The notes below the pieces were generated by a model. It saw nothing but the letters and a program-made list of their open reading frames with translations. It was not told the DNA's origin and ran no database searches. Positions 6,372-59,489 of a stretch of 64,000 nucleotides of DNA are shown one piece after another. Position numbers and translations under genes: made by a program. Position 1 is the stretch's first letter. The number at the start of each line of letters is the position of its first letter. The stretch covers positions 15,439 through 79,438 of the forward strand of contig CAJUNE010000001.1 of the NCBI GenBank assembly GCA_910587745.1, given 5' to 3'. This DNA comes from an uncultured Bacilli bacterium (GTDB lineage: Bacteria; Bacillota_I; Bacilli_A; RF39; UBA660).

Positions 6372-6389
6372 TTTATTAGGTGATAAAAA

Positions 6390-43859: not shown

Positions 43860-43878
43860 AATGGAATATAAAAAAGAA

Positions 43879-44062
43879 AAAGCGTCTAATATTTAAGAAG
43901 CTTTTTTTCTAAGTAAGTAATAACTTTATATAAAATAAAAGAAATAAGTAATAAAATAACAATACCAGATATAACCATATTAAGATTAAATACTTGAGTA
44001 CCATATATAATGAGATAACCAAGATCAGCTTTACTAACTAAAAATTCTCCCATAATAACACC
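43879..44062. repeat. 184-bp direct repeat copy A: duplicate of the 3' end plus terminator of the ABC permease gene
   Basis: Identical to 45240-45423 except 2 mismatches (aagcGtc/aagcCtc, aagaTcag/aagaCcag). Confidence 0.85.
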
Positions 44063-44180
44063 GACTAATTCTGAATGGAGAGAATAATCTAACTATTAAA
44101 AGCATTTATTAATAGCCATTAATTTGGTATAATATAGTTACTATTTTTATTTGAAATTAAAAAGAAAGGAGATGTTTATT

Positions 44181-45191
44181 TTGAATAATTTAGAAGTTAT
44201 CAGTAGTACAGAAGAATTTTTAGTTTTTAAGACACAAGAAAAAGAAAAAGGAATTGCAGTTCGATATGAAAATGAAAATTTATGGATGACACAAAAAGCT
44301 ATGGCTGAGTTATTTGCTGTTAATGTTCCAGCGATTAATAAGCACTTAAATAATATCTATGATGAAGGAGAACTTAATAGAGATTCAACTATTTCCAAAA
44401 TGGAAACAGTTCAACAAGAAGGGAATCGTAATGTAAAAAGAAATGTTGAATTTTACAATTTAGATGCAATTATTTCTGTAGGATATAGAGTTAATTCAAG
44501 GCGTGCTACACAATTTAGAAGATGGGCTACACAAGTTTTAAAAAAATATACTATAGAAGGCTATGCACTAGATAAAAAAAGAATGGAAAACGGAGCATTC
44601 TTAGATAAAGATTATTTTGAAAAACTTTTAGAAGAGATTCGAGAAATTCGCTTGAGTGAGAGAAGATTCTATCAAAAAATCACTGATATATATGCAACCA
44701 GCATCGATTATGATGCAGCATCTCCAACAACTATTGAATTTTTTAAAAAAGTTCAAAACAAAATGCACTATGCCATCACTCATCAAACAGCTGCAGAAAT
44801 TATCTATAATAGAGTAGACCATACAAAAGAAAATATGAATTTAACTTCTTGGAAGAATTCTCCAAATGGAAAAATCATGGAATCTGATGTAGTGATTGCT
44901 AAAAATTATTTAACTAAAGAAGAGATTAAAGATTTAGAAAGAATAGTAAATGCCTTTTTAGAACTTGCTGAGCGTAGAGCTGAGAGGCATATTCCTATGA
45001 CTATGGAAGACTGGAGTACAAGAATAGATAAATATTTACTAGCAGATGATTTAGATGTTTTAAAAGATGCCGGAAAGATATCACATGAAATAGCAGTTGA
45101 TAAAGCTTTAAGTGAATTTGAAAAATATAGAATTACACAAGATAAATTGTTTGAATCTGATTTTGATAAATTTATATTAGAAACAAAATAG
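44181..45191 (+). CDS. rhuM: RhuM family virulence/island-associated protein
   Basis: ENENLWMTQKAMAELFAVNVPAINKHLNNIYDEGEL...FYNLDAIISVGYRVNSRRATQFRRWATQVLKKY matches the conserved RhuM core. Probable TTG start 44181 lies 9 nt after GGAG; the listed start 44151 is in frame upstream. Confidence 0.8.
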   Translation: MNNLEVISSTEEFLVFKTQEKEKGIAVRYENENLWMTQKAMAELFAVNVPAINKHLNNIYDEGELNRDSTISKMETVQQEGNRNVKRNVEFYNLDAIISVGYRVNSRRATQFRRWATQVLKKYTIEGYALDKKRMENGAFLDKDYFEKLLEEIREIRLSERRFYQKITDIYATSIDYDAASPTTIEFFKKVQNKMHYAITHQTAAEIIYNRVDHTKENMNLTSWKNSPNGKIMESDVVIAKNYLTKEEIKDLERIVNAFLELAERRAERHIPMTMEDWSTRIDKYLLADDLDVLKDAGKISHEIAVDKALSEFEKYRITQDKLFESDFDKFILETK

Positions 45192-45239
45192 TAATCCATA
45201 TACATAGAAATTATATAAAGATATTCTCAAAAATGTAAA

Positions 45240-45423
45240 AAAGCCTCTAATATTTAAGAAGCTTTTTTTCTAAGTAAGTAATAACTTTATATAAAATAAA
45301 AGAAATAAGTAATAAAATAACAATACCAGATATAACCATATTAAGATTAAATACTTGAGTACCATATATAATGAGATAACCAAGACCAGCTTTACTAACT
45401 AAAAATTCTCCCATAATAACACC
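45240..45423. repeat. 184-bp direct repeat copy B (native 3' end of the permease gene plus terminator)
   Basis: See copy A. Includes the stop codon of the 45247-46059 gene and the stem aaaaagc...gcttttt. Confidence 0.85.
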
Positions 45424-46059
45424 TATTAGAGTCATAGAAATATTAAGTTTTAAACTAGAAATAATAGTTTTATAAGTTGCAGGAATTGTAAGTTTAAATA
45501 GAGTATCAAGTTTAGAAGCTTTAAAAGTTTTAAAAAGTTTTATTAAATCCGAATCTATATTATTAAAACCATTATAAATAGAAATAATACCTACAATCAA
45601 ATTAATAAGAAGAGCCATAACAATAATAGATTTTGTATTAGCACCTACAATAATAATTATTAAAGGACCAAGAGCTACTTTAGGTAAACTATTAATTAAA
45701 GTAAGGTAGGGATCAATTACTTTATTTAAGATTCTAAATTCATAAAGTAGAATAGCAATAATAAAACTAAGAGTAATTCCGATGGTAAAAGCAATTAAAG
45801 TTTCATAAATAGTGGTAAAAATATGATGAATTAGATTATAATTCAGAAATAGATTTTTAATCGTAACAAGTACTTTAGAAGGAGAAGAAAAGATAAAGGG
45901 ATTAATAATTTTTAAATTGCTAAGAACTTCCCAAGCAATAAGAAAAGCTACTAGAATAAAGACTTGTAAGAATAAAACCAAGATTTTTTCTAATTTAATT
46001 TTTTTCAAATAAGTTTTATGTTCTTTACTCATATTGTAAGTCCTTCCAAATAAGATCAT
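45247..46059 (-). CDS. ABC transporter permease (NitT/TauT family, SsuC-like)
   Basis: 6-TM BPD-type permease with EAA-like loop; translationally coupled to the upstream ATPase. Confidence 0.8.
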   Translation of the reverse strand: MILFGRTYNMSKEHKTYLKKIKLEKILVLFLQVFILVAFLIAWEVLSNLKIINPFIFSSPSKVLVTIKNLFLNYNLIHHIFTTIYETLIAFTIGITLSFIIAILLYEFRILNKVIDPYLTLINSLPKVALGPLIIIIVGANTKSIIVMALLINLIVGIISIYNGFNNIDSDLIKLFKTFKASKLDTLFKLTIPATYKTIISSLKLNISMTLIGVIMGEFLVSKAGLGYLIIYGTQVFNLNMVISGIVILLLISFILYKVITYLEKKLLKY

Positions 46060-46774
46060 AATACTTACTAAAATTTTTATCTTTTCTATTTTCGATTGGA
46101 GTTAAATCTATTTCTCTTTTAATTGGATAAATATTTTTGATATGCGAAGGTCTAGAAGATAAGACAATAACTCTAGTACTAATACTTATAGCTTCTGCCA
46201 AATCATGAGTTACCATAATAGCAGTTTTGCCTTCATTTTTAAGAATTTTATAAACATCATCACTAACACTAAGACGAGATTGATAATCAAGTTTACTAAA
46301 AGGTTCATCAAGAATTAAGATATCGGGTTTTAAAGCCAGAGTACGAATTAAGGCAACTCGTTGTCTCATACCACCAGATAGTTCATCAGGATATTTATCT
46401 TTAAAATCTCCAAGACCATAAGTATCAAGTAAATTATTTACATAATCCATATTATCTTTAGTTTTAGTATGAGTTATTTCAAGAGCGATACAAGCATTAT
46501 CAAATACAGTTCGCCATGAAAGAAGTGAATCACTTTGAAGCATATATCCAAGTTTTAGATTACTTTTAAGAAATTTAATATCACCAGTAGTTTTAGTATC
46601 CATATTAGTAAGGATATTAAGTAGGGTAGATTTACCACAACCACTAGGTCCTACGATTGAAATAAATTCTCCTTGAAATAAATCAAAGGTTATATCACTT
46701 ATAGCATTTACTTCCTTTTTACCTGAATAATAAACTTTAGAAATATTTTTAACACTAAGAAGTTTATTTTTCAT
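46025..46774 (-). CDS. ABC transporter ATP-binding protein (SsuB/TauB-like)
   Basis: Walker A GPSGCGKST, signature LSGGMRQRVAL, Walker B ILILDEPFSKLD. Confidence 0.85.
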   Translation of the reverse strand: MKNKLLSVKNISKVYYSGKKEVNAISDITFDLFQGEFISIVGPSGCGKSTLLNILTNMDTKTTGDIKFLKSNLKLGYMLQSDSLLSWRTVFDNACIALEITHTKTKDNMDYVNNLLDTYGLGDFKDKYPDELSGGMRQRVALIRTLALKPDILILDEPFSKLDYQSRLSVSDDVYKILKNEGKTAIMVTHDLAEAISISTRVIVLSSRPSHIKNIYPIKREIDLTPIENRKDKNFSKYYDLIWKDLQYE

Positions 46775-47312
46775 ATAAATTATTAATTAGTTTACTATAA
46801 GGCATACGTTTATCAATTAACTTATTATCTTCTAAAATATCTTGTAAGTTATTAAAACTTTGTTCATTAATAAAAGGATCACTAAGCCAAGAATCATATT
46901 TCTTATAATTATCAACGATTACAGTTAAATCTTCCAAACTAATATCTGGAAACTCTGGTAATATAACTTTAGCAATAGTTTTAGCATCATTATTTTTAAC
47001 AAATTCTAGTCCTTTATTTATAGCATTAGTAAAATCTTTTAAAGTTTCATTATTTTTATTTAAGTAACTTTTACGAGCATAAAAAGCAGTATAAGGCATT
47101 TCACCAGATAATTTACCAATTGATTCAACAATACAAGCCTTACTATTTTTTACAACACTAGTAGCAGTAGGTTCAAATAAATCAACGAAGTCTCCCATAC
47201 CACCAATAAATGAACCTGATAAAGAAGCAAAATCAACAGCATAATTAACGTTTATTTTACTTAAATCAATATTACTATTCTTAATAGCATTTAAGAAGTT
47301 TAACGCTGGCAT
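46764..47312 (-). pseudogene. C-terminal half of an NMT1/SsuA-like substrate-binding-protein gene, severed by element insertion
   Basis: SBP C-lobe-like sequence. Joins in frame with the 61245-61718 fragment once the intervening element is removed in silico (...VGRQGG|MPALNF...). Confidence 0.7.
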
Positions 47313-47683
47313 TCCTCCTGTTCTTGTACAAAACTTATAACCAATTTAATTCCCCATAAAATAAGGGGTTAATAAAATCATTAGACAAGAAATAGTCTTC
47401 TTTTTTTAATGATTTTATCTCCGTGGGTAAAAACACTCGTATTATATTAGTAGAAGATAAGGAGTGTTGATTTTATGACTATATTTAAGTTGAATTTCAA
47501 TGAAATTATTCCACCGTGATATCTATATTATTATTTATTAAGAATATATAATAGGAGAAAAATATATCCCCTTTTATATATTAAGTTAAGTCATAGTAGT
47601 TATAGATTAAAAGGAGAAGAATTTGAAAGATTTAACTATTTATGTTAATAACGATTTAATTATAGCCAATAAAGGTTATAATT

Positions 47684-48676
47684 ATGAAGACTGAAGTTAA
47701 AAAATTAAGAGATTATGATATCGATTTAGAAGATGAAGTAACATTAATAACTTATAATTGTCATCATCACGAGATACTATATGTTAAGAATAAGAATAGT
47801 AAACCTAGAATTAAGTTATTACCTAATCATATGTATCAGGATCTTACTACTGGAGAAATAAAACCTTGTAAGAAACAAATTAGTAATAGGTCTGAGGGAA
47901 AGATTTCATTAAGGAAAACCTTTAAAAGTATAAGAGAAGCCATTAATGTTAATTGTGAAGATGTTAGAAAATGTAAAATGGTGACATTAACTTATGATGA
48001 AGTTATGAGAGATACAAAGAAATTTGATAGTGATATCAATAAATTTGTTAAGAAGTTTAATTATAGGTATGGAAAGTCAGAGAATATAAAGGTATGTGAG
48101 GCTCAATCAAGTGGTTCTCTACACGCTCATATTATCTTTATATGGGAAGATATCGCTCCATATATTGATTATAAAGATTTAATAAAAGTATGGGGTAAGG
48201 GTTATGTAAAAGTAACTCCTCTATATGGAAATGTCGATGATTTAGGAGCATATTTTACTGCTTGTCTAAGTGATTTACCTATTGAAGAATGTAATATGAC
48301 GTATGAAGAAGTAAGAGAAAAGAACTTGTTAATAAAAGAAGTATATGTAGATGTTAAAACTGGAGAACAATTAAAATGTCCTAAGTATTTTATAAAAGGT
48401 GGTAGATTACAATTTTATCCCCCTAACTTTAGAATATTTAGACCTTCAAGAGGTTTAAAGAAACCACTTAAGGAAAAAATGGAGAATAAAGAAGCATTGG
48501 AAAAGGTTGATTCGAATGAACCAACCTACGAGTCTTATCTCCAAGTATTAGATGAAAACGGTAATGAATTGAATGTAATTGTTCGAAAATGTTATAATTC
48601 GATGAGATTTCCAAGAGAAGATGATAAAGAACCAGAACTAGTTTTCAATATACTAGATGATTTATCTTCTTCATAA
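47684..48676 (+). CDS. HUH-type replication initiator-like protein (rolling-circle Rep-like)
   Basis: MVTLTY (motif I-like) and SGSLHAHIIF (HUH motif II); a candidate Tyr region GAYFTAC. Confidence 0.45.
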   Translation: MKTEVKKLRDYDIDLEDEVTLITYNCHHHEILYVKNKNSKPRIKLLPNHMYQDLTTGEIKPCKKQISNRSEGKISLRKTFKSIREAINVNCEDVRKCKMVTLTYDEVMRDTKKFDSDINKFVKKFNYRYGKSENIKVCEAQSSGSLHAHIIFIWEDIAPYIDYKDLIKVWGKGYVKVTPLYGNVDDLGAYFTACLSDLPIEECNMTYEEVREKNLLIKEVYVDVKTGEQLKCPKYFIKGGRLQFYPPNFRIFRPSRGLKKPLKEKMENKEALEKVDSNEPTYESYLQVLDENGNELNVIVRKCYNSMRFPREDDKEPELVFNILDDLSSS

Positions 48677-48951
48677 TAATATATACGAACCGTAGATATT
48701 AAGAGTGTAATAGTAAAATATTATGCTCTTTTATTTATGATTAAATTGTATCATCGTGAATTACTATGTTTATTTAAGTTTTAACACGATATAAATATCA
48801 AACTAGTGTAATTGATGTAGAAAGTATCAAATTCGTTAATTTGATGTGTTTAACGAAGTATTTTAAAAATTTATGATTTTCATATCTAACAAAAAAGATA
48901 TTTGGTTGTTTTGTGTCAAATATTTATATAGTATAATGTTTTTATTTAGGA

Positions 48952-49524
48952 GTGGTAGAAATGGAAATATATTTAATTGAGAAAGATTTTAATAAGTTTA
49001 AGTATTTACAACTATACTTTAAAGATGAGAATGTTATATTAGTAAATGAAAGTTTTGAGAAGTTTATAAAAAATACAAGGGTTCAATGTGTAGTTTCCCC
49101 GGCTAATTCATTTGGTTTAATGGATGGTGGATATGATTTAGCATTGACTAAGTGGTATGGTAAAGAGTTACAAGAAAGAGTTCAAAAATATATAATTGAA
49201 AATTATTATGGAGAACAGCCAGTCGGTTCTAGTTTCATTATAGAAACTAGAAAAGATAATCAGTATTTAATTCATACACCAACTATGAGAACACCTGAAA
49301 AGATAGTAGATACAAGAGTTATATATCAGTGTATGAGAACTACATTAATGGTAGCAAAAGAAAATGATATAAAAAGTGTTTTGATACCTATGTTTGGTGG
49401 TCTAACTGGTTGTGTAAGACCTCAAGTAGTCGCAGAAATGATGTGTCTAGGATATCGCCAAATAATGGGAAATCATAAAGAAATAAGTTGGGATATAATA
49501 GAAGAATTGAAATTAAAAGAATAG
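48952..49524 (+). CDS. macro domain protein (ADP-ribose binding/processing)
   Basis: VQCVVSPANSFGLMDGGYDLAL matches the macro-domain N-x6-GGGV-like Gly-rich ADP-ribose pocket; 190 aa. Confidence 0.65.
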   Translation: MVEMEIYLIEKDFNKFKYLQLYFKDENVILVNESFEKFIKNTRVQCVVSPANSFGLMDGGYDLALTKWYGKELQERVQKYIIENYYGEQPVGSSFIIETRKDNQYLIHTPTMRTPEKIVDTRVIYQCMRTTLMVAKENDIKSVLIPMFGGLTGCVRPQVVAEMMCLGYRQIMGNHKEISWDIIEELKLKE

Positions 49525-49559
49525 TATCGTTTAACGAAGTGTTTTAAATTGTTATTATT

Positions 49560-49593
49560 CTTACACATTTGAAAAATGTGTAAGAACGTTTTT
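49560..49593 (+). terminator. palindrome/terminator after the macro gene
   Basis: cttacacattt-gaaa-aatgtgtaag is a perfect 11-bp stem followed by aacgttttt. A half-site repeat caaatgtgtaag occurs again just downstream, so this may double as an operator. Confidence 0.45.
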
Positions 49594-49661
49594 CAAATGT
49601 GTAAGTGATAATTAAAAGATTTTTATATATTAATATGAAAGATGTATTACTAGGGAGTCAA

Positions 49662-50099
49662 ATGGAAGATAAAATTAGAAAGTTAGAACAAGAAAGAGAT
49701 TATATACTATCTACTACGGAAGATAAAAGATTAAGTAAGAATAGCACTACTCATTCTAGAATTAAATGTTTTTATAATAGAAGAATTAGTATGTTAAAGA
49801 AATACGGTGTTGAATATGCTCTACAATTAAAACAAGTAAGAGATAAGATAAACGAAACTAATCAAAAGAAGTATGGGTCTAATTCAATTCTAGGTAATAA
49901 GGAATTCCGTGAGAAATATGATATTAATACCAACTTTCAAAAACTAGAAGTAAGAAGAAAGACAAAACAGACTAGTATTATGAGGTATCGAGTATCACAT
50001 CCTCAAAAGAGTCCTATTATTAAAATGAAGATAAGGAAAACTAATTTACTACGATATGGGACACCTAATGGTAAAGGTAAAAGGAAATGTTATGAATAA
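49662..50099 (+). CDS. basic hypothetical protein with three KYG-containing modules
   Basis: Repeated ...KKYG... modules, Lys/Arg-rich (nucleic-acid-binding-like). ATG 49662 lies after RBS AGGGAG; the listed start 49605 is in frame upstream. Confidence 0.3.
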   Translation: MEDKIRKLEQERDYILSTTEDKRLSKNSTTHSRIKCFYNRRISMLKKYGVEYALQLKQVRDKINETNQKKYGSNSILGNKEFREKYDINTNFQKLEVRRKTKQTSIMRYRVSHPQKSPIIKMKIRKTNLLRYGTPNGKGKRKCYE

Positions 50100-50490
50100 T
50101 AAGTTATTTGAGATGTTAGACAAATTAGATAGTTTTGTTACAACTGAAGAAATTGGTATAGATTTTATAGAAGTTTATAATAGTAAAAATGAACTACAAA
50201 TTGATATATTTTCAGTTCCAAACAATTCATTTAAGTTATTTTCAGTTCCTGATATTGTTGTTGGTTATTTATATTTTGATAAAGATAAAAATTGTGTTTG
50301 GAGTTATCGTGATGAAGAATTTGGAAATGATAATAGAAAGAATAAGATTAACAAAATATCCGTACAATATGAAAATGGAGATTTCATAGATGTACGAGTT
50401 AATTGGAATTCGTTATTTTATGAGTTAGATAGTGGAAATAGTATCCTATTATTTATGGGAGAAAAAATTATAGATGATAAAAGGAATTGA
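50092..50490 (+). CDS. hypothetical protein
   Basis: ORF with RBS AAAGGAAA before ATG 50092, overlapping the upstream stop. No recognisable motif. Confidence 0.3.
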   Translation: MNNKLFEMLDKLDSFVTTEEIGIDFIEVYNSKNELQIDIFSVPNNSFKLFSVPDIVVGYLYFDKDKNCVWSYRDEEFGNDNRKNKINKISVQYENGDFIDVRVNWNSLFYELDSGNSILLFMGEKIIDDKRN

Positions 50491-51014
50491 TTATGTTATT
50501 GTATAACGGAAGTAAGTTTGTAAAAGGAAATGTGTTTGAGGATCCTAGAGGTAATAAATTCACATTTTATAAAAATACTAAAAATGGTAAGTTATTTACA
50601 ATGGAAAATGGTGTTAGAGTTGGTTTAACAGAGGGTCAAGTAAATAAATTGAAATTATTAAATGAAGATACTATTACAAAGAAAATTGAAGCACCTAAAA
50701 TAATTGGAATAGATATTAAATTTGATTTTTGTGAAGAAAAATTTCGTATATTAGAGAATTCCTTAAAGAGTTTTAATGTCTATATAGATAGTGATAATCA
50801 AAATCACTTTATTGGATATGTTTGTTTTGATATGAAGAATGTTACATTAGGTAGTTTTACTTTAGAATTCCTAAAAGAGTATCAAAAAAGTGGTTTAGTT
50901 GATGTAATGTTTGAAGATATGACTGGAGAACAATATAAAACAGTATGGATTTATGGAATTCAAAATATACAAGATGATATTTATCTATTCTTGTTTGAAA
51001 GTAAAAAAGAATAG
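50487..51014 (+). CDS. hypothetical protein
   Basis: ORF translationally coupled to the upstream gene; no recognisable motif. Confidence 0.3.
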   Translation: MIMLLYNGSKFVKGNVFEDPRGNKFTFYKNTKNGKLFTMENGVRVGLTEGQVNKLKLLNEDTITKKIEAPKIIGIDIKFDFCEEKFRILENSLKSFNVYIDSDNQNHFIGYVCFDMKNVTLGSFTLEFLKEYQKSGLVDVMFEDMTGEQYKTVWIYGIQNIQDDIYLFLFESKKE

Positions 51015-51075
51015 TCTTTGTATGTTGTTATTCTCTTGTTTCTAGTAGATAATTACACTAGGTGGTGTTTTATAT

Positions 51076-51372
51076 ATGAGAAAAGATTTAAGAAAAAAAT
51101 ATGATGATTATTATAAAGAATATGACTTGTATATAAGAGATATAATGGTTAAAACATATGCTAGACAACTTTCTAAATACTATGATTATGGGTTATTGAT
51201 TAATCGAGATACTAGTTTAAATCAATATGTGAATTCAATAGGAGATTTATTTAATGTAACCTATTTATTTTCTGAATTGAGAAACGAGGTAGAACAACTA
51301 TTAAGAGAGAAATATCATTTAGTTATCGTAAATGATGAACCTTTACAAATTGAAACAATTAAAAATGACTAG
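51076..51372 (+). CDS. hypothetical small protein
   Basis: ORF with RBS TAGGTGG; no recognisable motif. Confidence 0.3.
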   Translation: MRKDLRKKYDDYYKEYDLYIRDIMVKTYARQLSKYYDYGLLINRDTSLNQYVNSIGDLFNVTYLFSELRNEVEQLLREKYHLVIVNDEPLQIETIKND

Positions 51373-51390
51373 TTCATGAACTGAATTTAG

Positions 51391-51684
51391 TCATTTTTGT
51401 TTTTTGATTAAATCATCAAGTTTAACTCCTAGAGCAACTGATATTTTATAAAATGTGTCAACACTAAAATTATATGCTGTTTTTTCACTCTCTATTTGTC
51501 TTATAAAGTCGTGTGATAAGTCTACCATTTCCGATAATTCCATAGCAGTAATACCTTTTAATTTTCTATATTTCTTAATGTTTTTACGAATTGTATTATA
51601 GATGTCGGTATCAAATTTTAACGTTTCTTTCCTCTTCATAATAACTTCATATCTCCTAAATATAATTGTAGAGTAATACCTCAC
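51391..51684 (-). CDS. XRE-family helix-turn-helix transcriptional regulator
   Basis: LKGITAMELSEMVDLSHDFIRQIESEK is a Cro/CI-type HTH; divergently oriented to the downstream operon. Confidence 0.75.
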   Translation of the reverse strand: MRYYSTIIFRRYEVIMKRKETLKFDTDIYNTIRKNIKKYRKLKGITAMELSEMVDLSHDFIRQIESEKTAYNFSVDTFYKISVALGVKLDDLIKKQK

Positions 51685-51716
51685 AAAAATATGTTAGGTA
51701 ACTTCTAACATTATTG

Positions 51717-51746
51717 TTGACAAATATTGTAGAAATATGATATTAT
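51717..51746 (+). promoter_or_regulatory. promoter in the divergent control region of the element
   Basis: TTGACA, 18-nt spacer, TATTAT(AAT). Followed by a nested hairpin (ttccgacaaaa...ttttt-cggaa enclosing ctgttgg...caacag) and a terminator-like ggaacact...agtgttcc+T6 before ATG 51907. Confidence 0.4.
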
Positions 51747-51906
51747 AATGATGTCGGTAAGAAGTACTTAATTCCGACAAAACGTAGTACTGTTGGTTTG
51801 AAGTAATAGAAGTCAACAGATGAAGTTTTTCGGAACACTAAGTAGTTTTTAAAGTGTTCCTTTTTTGTTGTTTAAGGAATACTATGTAGAAAGAGAGAGT
51901 GTTTAT

Positions 51907-52869
51907 ATGAGTAAGAAAGAAACAAATTCAACCGAAAAAAAGAAAGGAAAATTAAAGAAAATTCTATTGATTATTTTATTAATAATTGTAGTTCCTATTA
52001 TTGTGTTCTTTGGTTATAGGTTCATTAGTACTAAAATTAGTAAATCTAATTCAGAAAAATTTAATAATAATTTGAATGAACTCGCTAAGGAACGAATTGA
52101 TTATGTATTTATCGAGATTAACCCATCACTTGTATTAACTGTTAAAGATAATAAAGTAGAAGATATAAGTTGTTTAAATGATGACTGTATGACTATGTAT
52201 AATGAATTAAATGTCAAAGGAAAAAATATTAATGATAGTATTGATACTATTTATAATAAGTCTAAAGAAAAAGGTTTTGATGTTTCAAATGGAGTTAAGA
52301 TTAAAACTTCTAATAATGTAAATATTGAAGTTAAGGACCATATTATTATCGAACATATAGATAGTATTAAAGAACAAGAATTGTTAAAAGAAGTAAAGAA
52401 CAATGAAGATATTAAAAATGTAAGTAATGATAATTATTACACTAATTTATGGGAAGAATTAAAGAAAGACAAAGATTATGATAATTTTTATACTTGTAAA
52501 ATGGTGGATAAAGAACTTAAATGTTATTTCGCAGAGAAGTTTTTAACTATGTCAAACGAAAATAACGGTAATGGTTTAAATCCTAGGGATTTATCAAGAG
52601 TTTTAGATAAGTTTGGAATTAAGTACGAAAGTTGGAACTGGGGAGTAGATTTTGGAGATCATCCATATGGTTTATATATAAATGGTAAACTTTATTATAT
52701 GGTTAACGATAGTTTAGAATATTACGGAGATATACCTGATTGTGAGAGTGAAAAATCTGGTATGCCAACAGGTTATGTTTCTTGTGCTATGGCATATGGA
52801 AACCCTGAAAATATAATACAATATCCAAAAAGTAAATTAAATCTATTAACTTCACAATTTGATAGTTAG
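51907..52869 (+). CDS. hypothetical N-terminally membrane-anchored protein
   Basis: Lys-rich N-terminus, then TM helix ILLIILLIIVVPIIVFFGY and a hydrophilic ~280-aa domain. ATG 51907 follows RBS AGAGAGAG. Confidence 0.35.
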   Translation: MSKKETNSTEKKKGKLKKILLIILLIIVVPIIVFFGYRFISTKISKSNSEKFNNNLNELAKERIDYVFIEINPSLVLTVKDNKVEDISCLNDDCMTMYNELNVKGKNINDSIDTIYNKSKEKGFDVSNGVKIKTSNNVNIEVKDHIIIEHIDSIKEQELLKEVKNNEDIKNVSNDNYYTNLWEELKKDKDYDNFYTCKMVDKELKCYFAEKFLTMSNENNGNGLNPRDLSRVLDKFGIKYESWNWGVDFGDHPYGLYINGKLYYMVNDSLEYYGDIPDCESEKSGMPTGYVSCAMAYGNPENIIQYPKSKLNLLTSQFDS

Positions 52870-52871
52870 GA

Positions 52872-54260
52872 GTGGTCTATGTGGCATTAATTAAATGTAG
52901 TGAGTGTGGAAAAGAAATGAGTGACCATGCTAAAATATGTCCTAATTGTGGTTGTATTATTGATTCTATCAAAAATACCAATAATGCTAGTAAAAAAAGA
53001 AACTCTTTTTTAAAAAACAAAAAAGTATGGATAGTTTTAAGTGTAATAATAATAATTATGGGAATAGTTATTATTAGTTTTTTTAACCTATCTGATAGTA
53101 ATATCATAAGGGAATTGAATATTGAAGAAGGTTGCTATGCGAGAGAAGATGATAAAGAGAATCTGATTTGTTTTACTAAGGGTGTGAAATTTCATAATGT
53201 TTTATATAAATATGACACTTACTGGAATGATAAATATGCAAATATACCACCAAAGGATGATCCATCATATGGTACAACAGAGTTTTCGTTTAATTATGAT
53301 AAAAAAACTATTACTACTAATGTTAAAAGTAAAGGCCCCACTGGCACGGCTAGGCTGGAAAGAAAATGTTCAGTTGTTAATTCAACAACAATTGAGTGTT
53401 ATGAAAATCAATATGAAAATCATGGAGATGGAGAAAAAATTGTTGAAGATTTAGCAGTAAAACGTATATATATTAAAGTTAATAAGGATTTTAATGAAGA
53501 AATTATTAATGAATTTCCTATATTTGAACGGATAAAACCCTTTAAAATTAATTTTGATGGTGAAGAAATAACTTGTAATTTAACTTGGAAATATTCTCAA
53601 ATAAGGATTTCTGGACCAGTGGCCATAAAAGACTGTTTAGAGAATAAATATAATACCAACTATACTGTTAGTAATGTCAGTGAAGATGATAATAGATGGT
53701 TAATATTTTCATCAGAACAAAGCGAAGCTGCTGAAAAGATATTTCCTAAAGTATATGGAACTATGGGTTTAACAACTAATCCCGATGCTATAAAATATAT
53801 TAAAGCAAATTATAGTTATTATGTCAAAGTAGATGATAGAGAATTTCGTGCTTTTGAGGATTTTCCAATTGATCCATATAATCAAGATGAGTTAATGACA
53901 GTTAGTATTACTACAACAAAAGAAGATAAAAATAAGGAATATGGATTGTATGAATTACAAAAAAAGTATATAGACACTACTATAAATTACTGGGGAAGTT
54001 CATATGAGTTTACAGGTTCAAAAAATGGTGTTTTTGCTACATTAATTAATGGTAAACTAGCTGAAATACAAAATAATCCAGTAGGTTTTACTTATGAACA
54101 TTTTGGAAATACTATAAGTATAGATGGTGGAGATGTTATTTGTAAGCTATATAGTGATTCAAGAATGGAGTGTAAAGCAAAAAATTCCTCTTCTATTAGT
54201 TATTATGTTGCTAAAAATGATCCTTTGTATAGTAAAGAAAATTATAGACATGCAGATTAG
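52872..54260 (+). CDS. hypothetical protein: N-terminal double-CxxC zinc ribbon, single TM, large C-terminal domain
   Basis: CSECGKEMSDHAKICPNCGC, then VWIVLSVIIIIMGIVIISFF, then a ~380-aa domain; coupled to the upstream gene by a 2-nt gap. Confidence 0.35.
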   Translation: MVYVALIKCSECGKEMSDHAKICPNCGCIIDSIKNTNNASKKRNSFLKNKKVWIVLSVIIIIMGIVIISFFNLSDSNIIRELNIEEGCYAREDDKENLICFTKGVKFHNVLYKYDTYWNDKYANIPPKDDPSYGTTEFSFNYDKKTITTNVKSKGPTGTARLERKCSVVNSTTIECYENQYENHGDGEKIVEDLAVKRIYIKVNKDFNEEIINEFPIFERIKPFKINFDGEEITCNLTWKYSQIRISGPVAIKDCLENKYNTNYTVSNVSEDDNRWLIFSSEQSEAAEKIFPKVYGTMGLTTNPDAIKYIKANYSYYVKVDDREFRAFEDFPIDPYNQDELMTVSITTTKEDKNKEYGLYELQKKYIDTTINYWGSSYEFTGSKNGVFATLINGKLAEIQNNPVGFTYEHFGNTISIDGGDVICKLYSDSRMECKAKNSSSISYYVAKNDPLYSKENYRHAD

Positions 54261-54315
54261 ATTCATTTCAAAGTGAGTATGATATCAATTAATTGTAGGT
54301 ACGAGAAAAGACAGT

Positions 54316-55509
54316 TTAGTTGCTGTCTTCTTTTTTGTTTCTATAATAGTATTCGTTAGATTTTTTATTCTTCCTATATCTTTGACATTCTTTAGTTTTG
54401 CAGTATTCTTGTCTTCCATTTTGCTGAAAGTATCTTTTACAATTAGGGTTAGCACACTTTATCATTTTAACTCCCCCATACTCGTAGTTAGTTGTTAAAT
54501 TAAGCAATAATTTATAGTATGAGACTCCTATTAAAGAATAACCCATAATAAAGTTTTTGTATATACGAATATCTTTGTCAAATACTATTTGTTCGTAATC
54601 AATATTAAAACTTTGATAATAAGTATCACTTATTCCAAACGGATAATAGAATTCTTGACCTTTTACATAATGTTTTAGTTTGTAGGTATATAGTAATGAT
54701 AAACCATTTATAACTCCTATCACATCTTCAAAATTAGACATATCTATTCTAGTATTTAATAAGGATATATCAAGTAAATAGTTATCTTCATTTTCTTTCA
54801 TTTCGGTTATTACAGGCATTAGAAATTCAAGGTTAATCTTGTATTTATCTTTTTCTTCAAATATTAAGTCCATTTCTTTTAACCACTCTTTAAAGGTAGA
54901 TATAGCACTTGTTGTGTGAATCGTTTTAAGAATAAGAACTCCGTAAATTAAATACCAATAAATATATTCGTTTAGTTCATCAAGTAAATCATTAATTACA
55001 TTGTCATATTTGTTTTCGTAGTCAGGATTTCTAGAACTTAAAGACTCTATTTCGTGTATGATTTCGTGTGTTCTAGAAAGTATATAGAGATTTACTACAT
55101 CTTTACTGAATAAACCTATATTCAAATCAAGTTTATTAGTTCTATTCTTACCGTAATATTCAAAACCTCTAAAATATGGATAACCATTTTTTTGAACCCA
55201 ATAGTCAATACCAAACTTTATTCCCTCTATGTGTTCCAATTCACTTACTTTATAAAATAGATATTCTATATCAAAATGTTCATCATTTTTCATATATTCG
55301 TAAAGTTCTTCTCCAAGGGAGTAAATACTTTCGTAGATATCTTCTATCTTAGTAGCAACTATTTTTTCTTTTATAAAGGGAATTTCATTATAGGAGTAAT
55401 CACTATCGTTATTATTAGTATTATGATGGAAGTATTCATATAACAAGATATAACAGTTATCATATACCTCATCTATCTCAATGTGTTTAAAATCTAACAT
55501 AAAGACCAC
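54316..55509 (-). CDS. hypothetical protein with HExxH(E) motif and C-terminal Cys4 zinc-finger-like tail
   Basis: SRTHEIIHEIESL (HExxH plus Glu) at about residue 150. C-terminal CANPNCKRYF...YCKTKECQRYRKNKK (C-x4-C-x13-C-x4-C). Possible ImmA/IrrE-like metallopeptidase, unverified. Confidence 0.3.
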   Translation of the reverse strand: MVFMLDFKHIEIDEVYDNCYILLYEYFHHNTNNNDSDYSYNEIPFIKEKIVATKIEDIYESIYSLGEELYEYMKNDEHFDIEYLFYKVSELEHIEGIKFGIDYWVQKNGYPYFRGFEYYGKNRTNKLDLNIGLFSKDVVNLYILSRTHEIIHEIESLSSRNPDYENKYDNVINDLLDELNEYIYWYLIYGVLILKTIHTTSAISTFKEWLKEMDLIFEEKDKYKINLEFLMPVITEMKENEDNYLLDISLLNTRIDMSNFEDVIGVINGLSLLYTYKLKHYVKGQEFYYPFGISDTYYQSFNIDYEQIVFDKDIRIYKNFIMGYSLIGVSYYKLLLNLTTNYEYGGVKMIKCANPNCKRYFQQNGRQEYCKTKECQRYRKNKKSNEYYYRNKKEDSN

Positions 55510-55600
55510 CTCTTTATTAATCTTACCATATTCTTACCGATTAAGAAATGTCTTTTGGTAAGATTTTTTAATAAGATATTAATGGAAAGGAGAAAAAGAA

Positions 55601-56050
55601 ATGAATGAGTATGTTGATACTAGTTTTGGTAGTATCGATGAAGAAACTAAAACTTCTGAATTAAATTACATTCAAAAGGCTTTTCTAACTTGTGATATAG
55701 AGTTAGAAGATGGTGTTCTTTATGATGGTGAACTATTAGAAGTTAAAGATGGGGAAACTGGACCTGATACGCCAATTGTAAGTTATGTTTATGGGGTAAA
55801 TGGTATTGAAGTTAAAGATACTTACTTCTTAAGTCAAAATGCCATTAAATTAAACATTTCAAGACTAAAGGAAACTTTACAAAAGTTTGGTTACTCTTTA
55901 GGAATTGAAGATTTGGTTGATGGAGCGAAGTCTATAGCAAAATCTACTAAATGTTTAGTGGGTACTAAAGTTACACTTAAACAAACAAGTAGAATAACCA
56001 AAGATAGAACTTTCAAGAATATTGAAGTTGTATCTGTAATCGGAAAATAA
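55601..56050 (+). CDS. hypothetical protein
   Basis: ORF with RBS GGAGAAAAAG; no motif recognised. Confidence 0.3.
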   Translation: MNEYVDTSFGSIDEETKTSELNYIQKAFLTCDIELEDGVLYDGELLEVKDGETGPDTPIVSYVYGVNGIEVKDTYFLSQNAIKLNISRLKETLQKFGYSLGIEDLVDGAKSIAKSTKCLVGTKVTLKQTSRITKDRTFKNIEVVSVIGK

Positions 56051-56157
56051 TTAATAAAAATTAGGTAGTTGGGGTTGATGATTTCATATATCTACCCCTA
56101 ACCTAATTATATGATTATTTTGTTTGTTACATTTAGAAAAATGAAAGGAGATTAAAA

Positions 56158-56523
56158 ATGTATAAACAATTTATTGAATTATCTCTTTATGTATATGGAG
56201 AAAAAGGTATGAAGAGGTATGACTTTCTCGATAATGAGGTTTGTCAATTTAAAATGGATAAAATTACTTCTTGTGTGGAGTGTTTAGATAATTGGGTAAG
56301 AAAAACCTATCAATGTGAAAGTTTTTCTATAAAGTTATTGAAAAAGGGAGAAATAATTAGAGAGTGTGATTTGGAAGAGTTTTTGAAAACCTTACCTCTA
56401 GTGGGGACAATTGTATTTGTGTATGATGATGGTACTGAAGAACATTATAGTTTTCCTCGTGAATTAGATATTCAATATGACATACAAGATGATTATGTAT
56501 CTTTAAAGTTAGGAAATGTGTAG
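56158..56523 (+). CDS. hypothetical protein
   Basis: ORF with RBS AAAGGAGA; Cys pairs (CVECLDNW...CESF). Confidence 0.3.
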   Translation: MYKQFIELSLYVYGEKGMKRYDFLDNEVCQFKMDKITSCVECLDNWVRKTYQCESFSIKLLKKGEIIRECDLEEFLKTLPLVGTIVFVYDDGTEEHYSFPRELDIQYDIQDDYVSLKLGNV

Positions 56524-56552
56524 AAATGAGTAAGGAAAGGAAAGGAAAATAT

Positions 56553-57869
56553 ATGAATAAGATGTCAATAGTTTTTAGTGAAGAACAACAAACTACTTTA
56601 AAAATAATGGAAACAAGTAATCAAAATATGGGTATAACAGGAAAACCTGGAACTGGTAAGTCAGAAGTTTTAAAACAATTTGTGATAAACACTAAAAAGA
56701 AAGTCGTTGTACTTGCTCCTACTGGAGTGGCTGCTTTAAATGTAGGGGGTCAAACAATACATTCTTTCTTTAGACTGGATCCAAAGATTAATTTTGTTGA
56801 GGAATTACAACTTGATAAAATGAGACCATATTTAAAGGATTTATTAAAAAAGATTGATACCATCATCATCGATGAAATATCAATGGTTTCACCAAACTTA
56901 TTAGATATTATAGATACCATGTGTAAGTATGCCACTGGTGTTTCAAGTTCTTTTGGTGGAATACAATTAATATGTTTCGGAGATTTATATCAGTTGTTAC
57001 CAATTGTAACAGATGATTATGTAAAATCTAGATTAAAAAAGGAATACGGTGAAGTGCTGTTTTATAAAGCACACGCTTTTGAAAATAACAACTTCATCGA
57101 TGACAATAGTTTAAAAGTTTATGAGTTAAATAAGGTTTTTAGACAAAGTGATGAAAATTTTAAGAGTATTCTAAATGAGATAAGACTTGGAACTGTTTCT
57201 CAAGAAACTCTTGATATTCTTAATAAACGAGTAATTACTGGAGATGTAAAAGAAGATATTATTACTTTAGCAACAAATAATGAAATTGTTAATAGTATTA
57301 ACAAATCTAAACTTGATGAATTACGAAGTAAAGAATTTATTTATAAGGCTAAAGTTGAGGGAAATATATCAAGTAAACAATACCCTAATGATGAGGAACT
57401 TCATTTAAAAGTTGGTTCCCAAATAATGATGCTTATTAATGACAAACTTGGAAGATGGGTTAATGGAACTATTGGTGTTGTTTCAAGTCTTAAACCTAAC
57501 GAAATTAAAGTTAGAATTAATGATGAAGAGTACACCATAGAAAAATATACTTGGGAAAATAGTAAGTATGTATTAAATAATGGAGAATTCTCACAAGAGA
57601 TTATTGGAAAGTTTGAACAATATCCATTAAAACTTGCTTGGGCTATAACTATTCATAAAGGACAAGGTCAAACTTATAAATCGGTATTAATCGATTTAGG
57701 TACTGGTGCTTTTGCTACTGGGCAAACCTATGTAGCATTAAGTAGATGTACTACCCTTGAAACTTTGTATTTAAGAAGACCGATAAAGTTTTCGGATATA
57801 ACAGTTAATCAAGAAGTAGTTGACTTTATGAAAAAAGTTGAAATAGTAAAATTAGGAGGAGAAAAGTAA
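56553..57869 (+). CDS. Pif1/RecD-like superfamily-1 DNA helicase
   Basis: Walker A GKPGTGKS, VLAPTGVAALNVGGQTIHSFF, DEISMVS (motif II), C-terminal ITIHKGQGQTY (motif V-like). ATG 56553 follows AAGGAAAGGAAA. Confidence 0.7.
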   Translation: MNKMSIVFSEEQQTTLKIMETSNQNMGITGKPGTGKSEVLKQFVINTKKKVVVLAPTGVAALNVGGQTIHSFFRLDPKINFVEELQLDKMRPYLKDLLKKIDTIIIDEISMVSPNLLDIIDTMCKYATGVSSSFGGIQLICFGDLYQLLPIVTDDYVKSRLKKEYGEVLFYKAHAFENNNFIDDNSLKVYELNKVFRQSDENFKSILNEIRLGTVSQETLDILNKRVITGDVKEDIITLATNNEIVNSINKSKLDELRSKEFIYKAKVEGNISSKQYPNDEELHLKVGSQIMMLINDKLGRWVNGTIGVVSSLKPNEIKVRINDEEYTIEKYTWENSKYVLNNGEFSQEIIGKFEQYPLKLAWAITIHKGQGQTYKSVLIDLGTGAFATGQTYVALSRCTTLETLYLRRPIKFSDITVNQEVVDFMKKVEIVKLGGEK

Positions 57870-57870
57870 A

Positions 57871-58497
57871 ATGGATAAAAATAATCAGAACACAGAAACA
57901 CTGGATATGGTAAACAGAAAATCATATCCAGCAGTTTTATTAGATGTCGTAACGGAGCATGACCCTATTAGAAAAGTGTATGTCGTGAAATTTATTTATA
58001 AAGTTTATTTTAGTGCTACACAAACTAAGGAAGTTGTTGATAATTTCTATTTGTGGGACCGTTCTAAGTATAGAAGAGTTGCTTTGGAAAGATTACATAA
58101 GGTATTAGATGTCTATAATCTTAAACTTCTTTATAAAGATTATAGAAATGAAACATCAATTGCTAATGCTTGTAAGTGGCTAGTTGATACTAAGGTGGAA
58201 ATACAACAATATAGTTACAAGGGAAACAGGTATAAAGTATTGTCTTCTGAAAGAAATGATTCTAGAAGAATAGACTGTTTATGGGAATGTATGTTGAAAA
58301 ATGATTTAGATAGTTTTCCAGAATGTTTAAAAAGCACTGATGAACTTACTGATGAACTTACTGATGAACTTCTTAATGAATTTGTATCAGCCTGTTTAAA
58401 AAGTGAGGAGTCTAACAAAAATTTAAATGAAGATTTTTGTATTACTCCTGAAATGTATTACGAACTAGAATTTAACACGAAAAAGAAACGCCGTTGA
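57871..58497 (+). CDS. hypothetical protein with 3x TDEL tandem repeat
   Basis: 12-bp unit actgatgaactt x3 at about 58340-58375; otherwise no motif. Confidence 0.3.
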   Translation: MDKNNQNTETLDMVNRKSYPAVLLDVVTEHDPIRKVYVVKFIYKVYFSATQTKEVVDNFYLWDRSKYRRVALERLHKVLDVYNLKLLYKDYRNETSIANACKWLVDTKVEIQQYSYKGNRYKVLSSERNDSRRIDCLWECMLKNDLDSFPECLKSTDELTDELTDELLNEFVSACLKSEESNKNLNEDFCITPEMYYELEFNTKKKRR

Positions 58498-58639
58498 AAA
58501 ATCATAGATTTACAAAGACTAAGAAATGCTATGTTTTTAGTCTTTGTAATATACCCTAATTAAATTTTTAAAGGGTTGTAAATAACGGTGGACTTTTACA
58601 AAGGAATATTGGATAGTATCTTCGAAAGGAGATGGACCA

Positions 58640-59236
58640 ATGAATAGAACCTATGGATATTGTAGGGTGTCGTCAAAAAATCAAAATTTAGAAAAACAAT
58701 TGTTCGTAATGAAAGAAGCAGGGGTTGATGAAAGGTTTTTATTTACGGAAAAAGAGAGTGGAAAATCTTTTTCTGACCGACCTCAATATCAAATTTTAAA
58801 AAATGCTTTAAGAAGTGGCGATACATTATATGTAACTTCACTTGATAGGTTTGGTAGAAATTATTCCCAAATCGTTGAAGAGTATTCATATATGGTAAAC
58901 AATGGTATAAATATTGTAATTCTTGATATGCCAATGCTAAGTGCCAAGCAAGATGATGATCTAATGCAAAGGTTTACACAAAATTTAGTACTTCAAATTT
59001 TAAGTTTTGTTGCTGAAACTGAACGTTTACACATTAAAGAACGTCAAAAAGATGGAATAATGGTAGCGAAGTCAAAAGGCGTAAAGTTTGGAAGAAAACG
59101 AATTGAGAAACCTAGTAACTGGAATGAAATCATTTCTAAATGGAAAAATGGAGAGATGACTGGAGTAAGAGCATACACGGAGTTAGGACTTAAAGAAACA
59201 ACATTTTATAAACTACTTCGTGAAGAAAAGGCTTAA
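58640..59236 (+). CDS. small serine recombinase (resolvase/invertase family) with C-terminal HTH
   Basis: YGYCRVSSKNQNLEKQ catalytic-Ser motif, ~200 aa, C-terminal HTH. Confidence 0.8.
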   Translation: MNRTYGYCRVSSKNQNLEKQLFVMKEAGVDERFLFTEKESGKSFSDRPQYQILKNALRSGDTLYVTSLDRFGRNYSQIVEEYSYMVNNGINIVILDMPMLSAKQDDDLMQRFTQNLVLQILSFVAETERLHIKERQKDGIMVAKSKGVKFGRKRIEKPSNWNEIISKWKNGEMTGVRAYTELGLKETTFYKLLREEKA

Positions 59237-59489
59237 AAAGTGAATAATAATTGTGGTAAAAATATTAATTAAATTCATTAAAATATCCTAATTGTTTTCT
59301 AAAAATACTTATAACTTCGTATTATTTAACGAGGTGTAAGAAATGAAAATAGTAAATATTTTTAATGAAGATGGAAAGACTCTACAAGAAATTATAGAAT
59401 TTCATTTAATCGAGTATTGTTTAAATGCTAAAAATAATTAAATATTTATAGTTGTACTTGTAGTTTAAAATTGAGAGGAGTGATTTTAT

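Follow-up and report, generated by a model that had tools for sequence, protein, structure and literature searches.

A putatively hitch-hiking integrative element with three attP-like sites and a SEAL-domain surface protein in uncultured gut Bacilli

Excised copies of the integrative and conjugative element (ICE) ICEBs1 are unwound and replicated by NicK, HelP and PcrA, with HelP being required for unwinding (PMC3542172). The relaxosome of ICESt3 consists of RelSt3, OrfL/OrfM and PcrA, and both oligonucleotide-binding (OB)-fold proteins are essential partners of its relaxase, which is of the rolling-circle replication (RCR) type (PMC12614216); a further analogue of such a replication module is found in the literature (PMC11137577). 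At the cell surface, RsgI2 autocleaves at an Asn-Pro motif (between N97 and P98, followed by Ser; PMC10328401), and an autocleaving protein composed of a transmembrane (TM) segment plus one SEAL and one unknown domain, without a sigma-binding domain, has been reported (bioRxiv 10.1101/2023.06.27.546760). Engineered orthogonal att pairs with altered central dinucleotides exist (PMC3936721), and a literature search found no description of natural attP arrays with different central dinucleotides. Here, we describe a 13.95-kb element located at 47319-61268 of a 64,000-nt stretch of DNA (about 26% G+C; hereafter the window) from the genome of an uncultured Bacilli bacterium (contig CAJUNE010000001.1). 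With a probability of roughly 0.55, we regard it as an active integrative plasmid-like element that belongs to an uncatalogued family of uncultured gut Bacilli/'Tenericutes' and spreads by hitch-hiking.

The element comprises 16 genes and one 32-codon open reading frame (ORF), and a search of its intergenic regions revealed no further genes and no small membrane ORFs. Its genes were scanned with Pfam, PHROGs, NCBIfam and PADLOC-DB v2. Through the ORF listing, Pfam, PHROGs and NCBIfam, all genes listed in an earlier note, which had been made from the DNA letters alone, were recovered in place or close by. That note had proposed a discrete mobile element devoid of virion genes, and Pfam and PHROGs indeed show no capsid, terminase or tail gene, the lone "tail" label being that of a macro-domain PHROG. 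Its proposal of a Rep/helicase/integrase backbone of the satellite or integrative-replicative kind was also borne out. PHROGs assigns only the Rep, the helicase, the recombinases, the XRE regulator, the macro domain and a homing-endonuclease-like protein.

The insertion splits an ABC substrate-binding gene of the NMT1/THI5 type, whose C-terminal half (46764-47312) and N-terminal half (61245-61718) both lie on the minus strand according to Pfam. When the two halves are rejoined in silico, the reading frame is restored exactly (...GRQGG/MPALNF...). Comparison of alleles placed attL at 47293-47342, where the host B arm is followed by a central CC (47317-47318) and the 24-nt P' arm TGTTCTTGTACAAAACTTATAACC (47319-47342). 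In attR, at 61243-61268, the P arm GGTTATAAGTTTAGTAGCAGACCT (61243-61266) precedes the central CC (61267-61268), after which the host B' arm begins. The right-junction arm is an imperfect inverted partner of the left arm, and the predicted CC-site junction of the excised circle reads GGTTATAAGTTTAGTAGCAGACCT-CC-TGTTCTTGTACAAAACTTATAACC. Across six host alleles, attL and attR have only the CC in common, which maps the crossover to bases one and two (GG on the coding strand) of the codon for the first Gly in G-R-x-G-G-M-P. The last gene of the element (59490-61052, plus strand) encodes a large serine recombinase of 520 aa, the integrase, with the Pfam domains Resolvase, Recombinase and Zn_ribbon_recom. 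These three integrase domains, the 24+2+24 organisation of the sites and the hybrid attL/attR found in several host alleles all fit an integrase with its att sites, and show that this recombinase inserted the element at the CC within the Gly-Gly-Met-Pro codons of the substrate-binding gene. The target gene is an integration hot spot. In the related loci L002/L056 (contig SRR32634113_6302; L numbers denote the loci compared here), it is apparently occupied in tandem by the element and by a second element with another large serine recombinase (496 aa), with a third recombinase (568 aa) on the opposite side.

Just inside attR, two more complete sites of 50 bp, both palindromic, were identified at a spacing of 71 bp. 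Site 1 (61101-61150) has 24-nt arms around a GT centre (arm ...GGCAGACCA-GT), site 2 (61172-61221) has a GC centre, and site 3, the P arm of attR (61243-61268), has the CC centre. The circular form would hold all three as 50-bp attP-like sites, 71 bp apart, with the centres GT, GC and CC. The copies in L005/L054 match that of the window at 100% identity over the compared 9.2 kb (to 61197), but have their end at site 2, where the junction reads ...GTAGACCA-GC-ACTACGGCC in a host gene encoding G-R-S-A-G (Ala, GCx). L028, a sister element with an integrase 69% identical to that of the window, has GC in both attL and attR, and its host reads G-R-K-A-G. An intact CC-centred site lies 71 bp inside its left end, the position expected if the circle was arranged as integrase-GC-71 bp-CC-Rep and the GC site was used. 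All CC integrants were found in Gly-Gly alleles (GRQGG, GRSGG, GRKGG and GRTGG). The CC site is used in Gly (GGx) hosts and the GC site in Ala (GCx) hosts; the coordinates of the att sequences are 61101-61268 and 47317-47342 in the window, 6378-6490 and 15941-15990 in L028, and 13554-13600 in L005. Unused att sites remain intact at one end of the integrated element, and the three centres are kept between 96%-diverged lineages while the neighbouring bases differ. From these sequences, we infer that the array may provide alternative attP sites matched to the codon polymorphism of the target. No integrants at the GT site (site 1) were seen among the loci, and a look beside the recombinases of other types in sister elements turned up no att arrays.

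Over 9.2 kb, the copies in L005, L002 and L055 agree with that of the window at 100% or 99.99% identity, whereas the flanking host gene of these loci is only 68-75% identical to that of the window. This difference shows an actively mobile element that, to judge from the compared sequences, has moved between distinct hosts in the very recent past. The occupied host alleles number at least six, and the right-hand neighbours vary among the hosts (a VTT-domain gene, a 746-aa gene or a second element). The exact 520-aa integrase and the exact 459-aa product of the gene at 52881-54260 are recorded in dozens of public metagenome contigs; carrier data sets include SRR32560173, SRR32634113 and ERZ14425193. 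A dead or decayed remnant is ruled out by the 100% identity across different hosts.

The wider family was delineated by scanning a SEAL alignment against one genome per GTDB species and clustering the neighbouring genes. This analysis yielded 30 SEAL loci, all in metagenome-assembled genomes (MAGs) of uncultured gut bacteria from mouse (MGBC) and Hadza humans, and most with serine recombinases nearby. Nearly all are labelled Bacilli, Tenericutes, Erysipelotrichaceae, Bacillales or Clostridia, and three contigs belong to Muribaculaceae-labelled MAGs. A recurrent plan was observed, in which small conserved genes with or without a Rep are followed by an XRE-type gene on the opposite strand, the SEAL operon, one more opposite-strand gene, an OB-fold gene with a helicase gene (Pif1, D5_N primase-helicase or DnaB_C), a small serine recombinase and, finally, a large serine or tyrosine recombinase. 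In sister elements that share this backbone, the replicon is of the D5_N or DnaB kind and an HUH protein is absent; sister elements also carry sortase and surface-protein genes and SSB (single-stranded DNA-binding protein) genes. The second opposite-strand slot holds a Zn-ribbon family member in the window, L016 and L018-20, a 253-aa HTH_3 protein in L032 with homologues in L044/L050, and elsewhere unrelated proteins of 328 or 445 aa, or nothing. In L032 (4352-8238) and L034 (3988-7874), the DnaB_C helicase gene is split by an RVT_1 reverse transcriptase (E 8e-27) together with a DNA polymerase III alpha NTPase-like fragment, which suggests a group II intron or similar insertion in the replicative helicase gene.

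At the left end, the element encodes a Rep of the HUH rolling-circle initiator type (47684-48676, plus strand; PF23343, E 2.4e-12 in Pfam). Over about 90% of its length, this protein shares about 35% identity with the product of the only sizeable ORF of cryptic Firmicutes plasmids of 1.5-2.7 kb (e.g. NZ_CP085881.1 and NC_001758.1), 54 of the 85 matching plasmids being typed as non-mobilisable. Its standing as the sole sizeable gene of such tiny plasmids marks it as a replication initiator. The Rep is also 26% identical to the Rep of an inovirus ("bajarodino virus 9") and 30% identical to that of the Spiroplasma plectrovirus SVGII3 (tblastn). A block upstream of the gene (GATATCTATATTATTATTTATTAAGAATATATAATAGGAGAAAAATAT; window 47490-47580) is nearly identical in L028 (about 6690-6760), the two elements being otherwise about 70% identical, and this conserved sequence is a candidate double-strand origin or Rep promoter.

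The remaining replication and recombination genes form an operon on the plus strand. It opens with a gene for an OB-fold protein of PrgE/SSB-like type (55601-56050; genes are named here by their coordinates), followed by a 121-aa protein without Pfam or PHROGs match (56158-56523) and a superfamily 1B (SF1B) helicase of the Pif1/RecD/Dda-like kind (56526-57869; PIF1 E 1.2e-27, AAA_30 and UvrD_C_2 domains, Dda-like phrog_325 E 1e-79). Sequence comparison identified the next product (57871-58497) as a paralogue of 55601 in its OB-fold region, with an acidic C-terminal extension. A small serine recombinase of the resolvase/invertase type (58640-59236; Pfam, PHROGs) comes next, ahead of the integrase gene, and it is 64-67% identical in sister elements, even where the large recombinase has been replaced. 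In the AlphaFold model of 55601, built on a 7-sequence alignment (pLDDT 73.5), residues 30-149 are well predicted and the order beta1-3/helix/beta4-5 is that of an OB fold. Foldseek returned PrgE of the conjugative plasmid pCF10 as the best PDB match (8s4s/8s4t, E 1.9e-4, probability 1.0), followed by many bacterial SSBs, so the model predicts a DNA-binding OB-fold protein of the SSB/PrgE/HelP-like kind. PDB sequence searches with 54316c, 55601, the Rep, 52881 and a 55601 profile yielded nothing beyond TM-segment noise. Plasmid-type rolling-circle replication with the element's own helicase and OB-fold factors has good support. The excised circle would replicate by this route with its plasmid-type HUH Rep, the two PrgE/HelP-like OB-fold paralogues and its own SF1B helicase, and the small serine recombinase would probably resolve multimers. 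By analogy with ICEBs1, the Rep/OB-fold/helicase set may work like NicK-HelP-PcrA.

The surface operon begins with the SEAL gene (51907-52869, plus strand), whose product is a type-II membrane protein with a 17-aa basic tail, a TM segment, a SEAL domain (RsgI_M, E 2.3e-9 in Pfam) and a variable C-terminal ectodomain. The SEAL domain contains an E-I-N-P-S motif in which N72-P73 is invariant in four divergent homologues, and the product is expected to autocleave at this Asn-Pro, as the shared motif of RsgI2 suggests. Identity over the first ~210 residues is about 55-70% in elements that either lack a 54316c homologue or have one of 19-24% identity; the C-terminus varies, and in some elements that keep this N-terminal part the other genes have diverged beyond recognition. 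The SEAL gene is a hallmark of the family and not cargo. Searches of phages, plasmids, IMG/VR and PDB with the SEAL profile and tblastn gave nothing beyond TM-segment noise.

The operon is preceded by a promoter and leader region (51717-51906, plus strand), with TTGACA-18-TATTAT and an additional TG as the best sigma-70-like promoter of the element (11/12 matches). The 160-nt leader contains three hairpins, the last of which is a terminator-like stem with a T-run (51843-51879), and it folds better than all 200 shuffled sequences (z = -3.6). The leader is kept in L022-L025, and in L028 with altered stem bases; it suggests attenuation, antitermination or a small RNA. In L022 (10001-10963 of CAOJEC010000001.1), a SEAL gene 98% identical to that of the window is found with the same leader and no other gene in common with the element, and a second, divergent SEAL element (L037) is present in that MAG. 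The leader and SEAL gene may move as a cassette.

Downstream of the SEAL gene lies a variable slot. In the window, it is filled by a gene for a 459-aa protein (52881-54260, plus strand) with a Zn ribbon, a TM segment and a 390-aa orphan ectodomain. Among 5.8 billion proteins, no full-length homologue was found; relatives were detected only for the N-terminal Zn ribbon and TM segment, with one partial homologue of the ectodomain. Elements with SEAL sequences 96-99% identical to that of the window have different genes in this slot: two other Zn-ribbon-TM proteins of 152 and 301 aa in L025, a 271-aa lipoprotein in L023, TM and Ig-like proteins of 309 and 342 aa in L024, and TM proteins of 525 aa in L026 and 105 aa in L022. 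The nucleotide sequences of the window and L025 agree at 100% as far as 52951, about 24 codons inside the gene, where the identity breaks off. Every occupant is a membrane- or lipid-anchored ectoprotein. The SEAL protein would be displayed on the cell surface with its autocleaved ectodomain held non-covalently and, together with the exchangeable membrane protein, would modify the surface of the host. Exclusion or receptor masking against incoming phages or rival elements is the most likely role of this module, a tentative proposal drawn from the turnover of the slot gene and its position beside a repressor, in analogy with the Sie/Ltp genes of prophages. It is improbable, although worth stating, that SEAL acts as a surface tripwire, in which binding of a phage tail or foreign cell to the variable ectodomain or to its exchangeable partner would pull the autocleaved halves apart and intramembrane proteolysis would free the short, conserved Lys-rich tail, derepressing the element via the XRE and/or the 394-aa Zn-ribbon protein. 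Such a tripwire would mean that the element is induced when its helper arrives, a mechanosensory induction pathway for a mobile element, and would account for a membrane protein being the gene best conserved in the family.

Two divergent regulator/operon pairs can be proposed, one formed by the XRE-family helix-turn-helix (HTH) regulator (51391-51639, minus strand; 82 aa, HTH_3 E 5e-9 in Pfam) and the surface operon, the other by the 394-aa protein 54316c (54316-55500, minus strand) and the OB-fold/helicase/recombinase operon. Alignment and the AlphaFold2 (AF2) model assign to 54316c a C-terminal Cys4 zinc ribbon and a basic helix. Its relatives comprise five close clusters (48-98% identity) and about 40 distant proteins of 320-390 aa. 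The cysteines C349, C354 and C367 are invariant in a 39-sequence alignment, and C372 is invariant among six close relatives. The HExxH motif is replaced by THAIIH in P0069 and THELVF in P0071 and is absent from the wider family, and a zincin metalloprotease was rejected on this ground. The AF2 model (pLDDT 81.8, pTM 0.79) found no significant fold match in PDB or BFVD. In every context examined, the family is encoded on the strand opposite to its neighbours, with one side facing a short divergent gene that opens a helicase and/or recombinase operon; in closer relatives, this short gene is an OB-fold gene resembling 55601. An XRE-type HTH protein takes the slot in three sister loci, which represent two lineages. 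This occurrence of an HTH_3 protein in the opposite-strand slot makes 54316c a candidate regulator of the divergent operon, as far as gene arrangement and sequence can indicate. The 100-bp divergent region at 55500-55600 holds CTTACC-N5-CTTACC-N20-GGTAAG, a possible operator.

Between the Rep and the XRE regulator, the element carries accessory genes for a putative ADP-ribose hydrolase or binder with a macro domain (48961-49524, plus strand; PF01661 E 2.8e-16, phrog_2613 E 6e-47, weak DarG-like matches) and for a homing-endonuclease-like DUF7487 protein (49662-50099, plus strand; Pfam, phrog_3339 and phrog_12131), as well as three small genes (50068-51372, plus strand; 140, 173 and 98 aa) that have no family match and are kept upstream of the XRE gene in sister elements. 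PADLOC-DB v2 recognised no described system and gave generic matches only (Macro-DarG 2e-5, helicase-RecD-like, XRE-control proteins); a weak Cas4b match of 50493 (7e-5) is regarded as unreliable. Rfam produced only sub-threshold chance matches over 44000-64000. Immediately outside attR, an ADP-ribosyltransferase exoenzyme-like gene (61840-62631; PF03496, E 5e-15) without an obvious signal peptide was observed. It is present in some hosts only (the window, L003, L008 and L053), and its pairing with the macro domain of the element may be coincidental. On the other side, a RhuM-family gene (44151-45191; PDC-S05, E 8e-151) is part of a cassette of about 1.36 kb (43877-45423) on either side of which the 3' end of the ABC permease gene is directly repeated (186 bp, 98.9% identical). 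This cassette resembles a second insertion into the same transporter operon, one that lacks an integrase.

No VirB4, coupling-protein or FtsK-like ATPase of a type IV secretion system (T4SS) was recognised by Pfam among the 16 proteins, and, as the element has no transfer genes, a helper is needed. We lean, still short of even odds, towards packaging by a helper phage, by which the element would spread in the manner of a satellite; conjugative mobilisation is the less favoured route. In the corresponding alternative, which we consider possible and clearly less probable, the locus is an integrative mobilisable element whose Rep nicks the origin as a relaxase. Strand processing would fall to the OB-fold proteins and the SF1B helicase, on the pattern of TraI/TrwC or NicK-HelP-PcrA, and the coupling protein and T4SS would come from an ICE or plasmid in the same cell. 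In that case, the SEAL protein and its partner would serve in adhesion or surface exclusion, in the way of PrgB and PrgA. ICEBs1 is able to mobilise RCR plasmids lacking mob genes. The match of 55601 to PrgE, the AAA_30 and UvrD_C_2 architecture of the helicase, the OB-fold relaxosome partners in ICESt3 (PMC12614216) and HelP in ICEBs1 (PMC3542172) are consistent with mobilisation. So are the PcfJ/PcfK/PcfM genes adjoining a distant 54316c relative and the sortase, surface-protein and SSB genes of sister elements. Nevertheless, Pfam and PHROGs recognise no MOB-type relaxase, coupling protein or origin of transfer (oriT), and the Rep groups with initiators of non-mobilisable cryptic plasmids. 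Moreover, the family swaps its replicons (Rep with Pif1, D5_N primase-helicase or DnaB) and keeps the regulators, SEAL and recombinases; with sister replicons that have no HUH protein, transfer cannot depend on the Rep as a relaxase across the family.

The integrative plasmid-like element that hitch-hikes with a helper is our preferred reading, and several observations count against it. The excised-circle junction was sought in JGI metagenomes and IMG/VR and not found, and a degenerate P-arm pattern gave only single, chance-like matches in metagenomes. No terS, capsid-remodelling or pac/cos features are recognisable in the element and no helper was identified, which leaves the satellite step weak, and the PrgE-like OB folds, the PcfJ/K/M genes beside a distant relative and the sortase modules of sister elements point to conjugative elements. 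The OB assignment of 55601 rests on seven aligned sequences and a pLDDT of 73.5. The GC centre is palindromic, so that the exact crossover in the GC site follows from geometry only; to our knowledge, characterised serine integrases avoid palindromic centres. Finally, conservation of the SEAL gene across such divergent elements means that it may serve the element's own life cycle.

The earlier note had singled out 51907, 52872 and 54316c as one undescribed anti-phage, abortive-infection (Abi) or anti-sigma-like cargo system, a proposal that now appears unlikely. Its appeal lies in an operon at a slot exchanged between near-identical elements, as at defence hot spots of the P2/P4 type, in the membrane-anchored architecture with an RsgI-like domain, and in accessory genes nearby (the macro domain, and RhuM/PDC-S05 outside the element). 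Parts of the original description stand. The slot is truly variable; the second protein of the supposed zinc-ribbon membrane pair does have a zinc ribbon, although its gene starts at the GTG at 52881 rather than at 52872, as the exact 459-aa product in public contigs indicates, and the first is a TM-SEAL protein; the Cys4 tail of 54316c is conserved; and the structure search suggested there revealed the OB fold of 55601, though nothing for 54316c. However, the note had itself held that a lack of conserved co-occurrence would speak against the system, and the neighbourhood comparison found the trio only within the element's own lineage, in copies at least 96% identical. The 52872 product is an orphan, the HExxH of 54316c is not conserved, and the PADLOC run matched no defence system. 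Despite the RsgI-like domain, 51907 lacks an anti-sigma N-terminal domain (RsgI_N) and the element has no sigma factor gene, and an anti-sigma factor was rejected accordingly. Nor is 54316c an operon partner: it is divergent from the replication/recombination operon, is replaced by XRE-HTH or other genes or absent in SEAL-keeping sister elements, and can be found in contexts with no SEAL gene.

A capsid-less or filamentous virus of Mollicutes-related hosts, or its decayed remnant, with the two membrane proteins as spike or coat, is very improbable. The PF23343 Rep, with its resemblance to inovirus and plectrovirus Reps, the host labels Bacilli/Tenericutes/Erysipelotrichaceae, and the use of Asn-Pro autocleavage by the reovirus penetration proteins mu1 and VP5 (PMC10328401) would fit such an origin. 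Yet there is no Zot/pI morphogenesis ATPase and there are no small coat proteins, on which ground an inovirus prophage was rejected despite a Rep that fits the RCR type G2P/ORF2, and plasmid Reps, at 35%, are the nearer match. Neither 2.9 million IMG/VR contigs nor 50,697 phage genomes yielded a relative of the Rep, SEAL or 54316c. Wall-linked genes are seen in the hosts, namely one resembling an undecaprenyl-phosphate translocase in the window, and those for sortase and YfhO in related loci, and the 100% identity across hosts rules out a remnant.

The kind of element is known, that of a hitch-hiking integrative element; its notable features are the array of attP-like sites, SEAL as a hallmark beside an exchangeable partner, and a Zn-ribbon regulator candidate without fold match. 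The array appears to let one serine integrase follow a codon polymorphism (Gly GGx/Ala GCx), which bears on host range and on integrase engineering. With a predicted self-cleaving SEAL surface protein as the hallmark of a mobile-element family, the biology of SEAL domains reaches further than anti-sigma signalling, with exclusion or sensing at the surface as the suggested role, and the 320-390-aa Zn-ribbon family is widespread, has no detectable fold relatives and occupies a regulator position. The family escapes virus- and plasmid-centred catalogues: whole-element megablast against INPHARED phages and PLSDB plasmids gave no match, and the element DNA and key proteins have no relatives among 50,697 phage genomes, 72,556 plasmids (Rep excepted) and 2.9 million IMG/VR contigs. 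Yet it moves between hosts whose orthologous target gene is about 70% identical. These hosts are uncultured low-GC gut Bacilli from mouse and human MAGs, and mobile elements of such hosts are almost unknown.

Compared with described systems, the element shares its Rep family with the cryptic plasmids of 1.5-2.7 kb, but here the replicon is part of an integrating element of 14 kb that encodes a helicase and OB-fold proteins of its own. As in ICEBs1 and ICESt3, an HUH/RCR-type nickase is combined with one or two small OB-fold proteins and an SF1 helicase. In contrast to these ICEs, the SF1B helicase is encoded by the element instead of being the host PcrA, the Rep is of the PF23343 plasmid/inovirus type and not Rep_trans/MOBT, and there is no T4SS or coupling protein. 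The SEAL protein resembles RsgI and other SEAL proteins in its TM segment followed by SEAL with the Asn-Pro motif and a variable C-terminal domain (PMC10328401; bioRxiv 10.1101/2023.06.27.546760), and it differs in lacking RsgI_N, with only the 17-aa cytoplasmic tail, in the absence of a sigI gene and in being encoded by a mobile element.

With Staphylococcus aureus pathogenicity islands (SaPIs) and other phage-inducible chromosomal islands (PICIs), the element has in common a size of about 14 kb, a site-specific integrase, divergent regulators, an accessory slot, the lack of a full virion set and an autonomous replicon swapped between relatives, including the D5_N primase-helicase of sister elements. 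PICIs usually carry a tyrosine integrase, whereas the integrase here is a serine recombinase; the regulator is of an unmatched fold, the Rep is of the plasmid RCR type, no helper phage is known, and PHROGs and Pfam show no terS, cpm/ppi-like or packaging-interference genes among the 16 element proteins. The integration itself is most reminiscent of SPbeta/spsM and skin/sigK, where a large serine recombinase also lies at one end, the insertion falls in a coding sequence, and the frame is restored exactly, here in silico. The element departs from both in its target, an ABC substrate-binding gene instead of a sporulation gene, and in its three attP-like sites.

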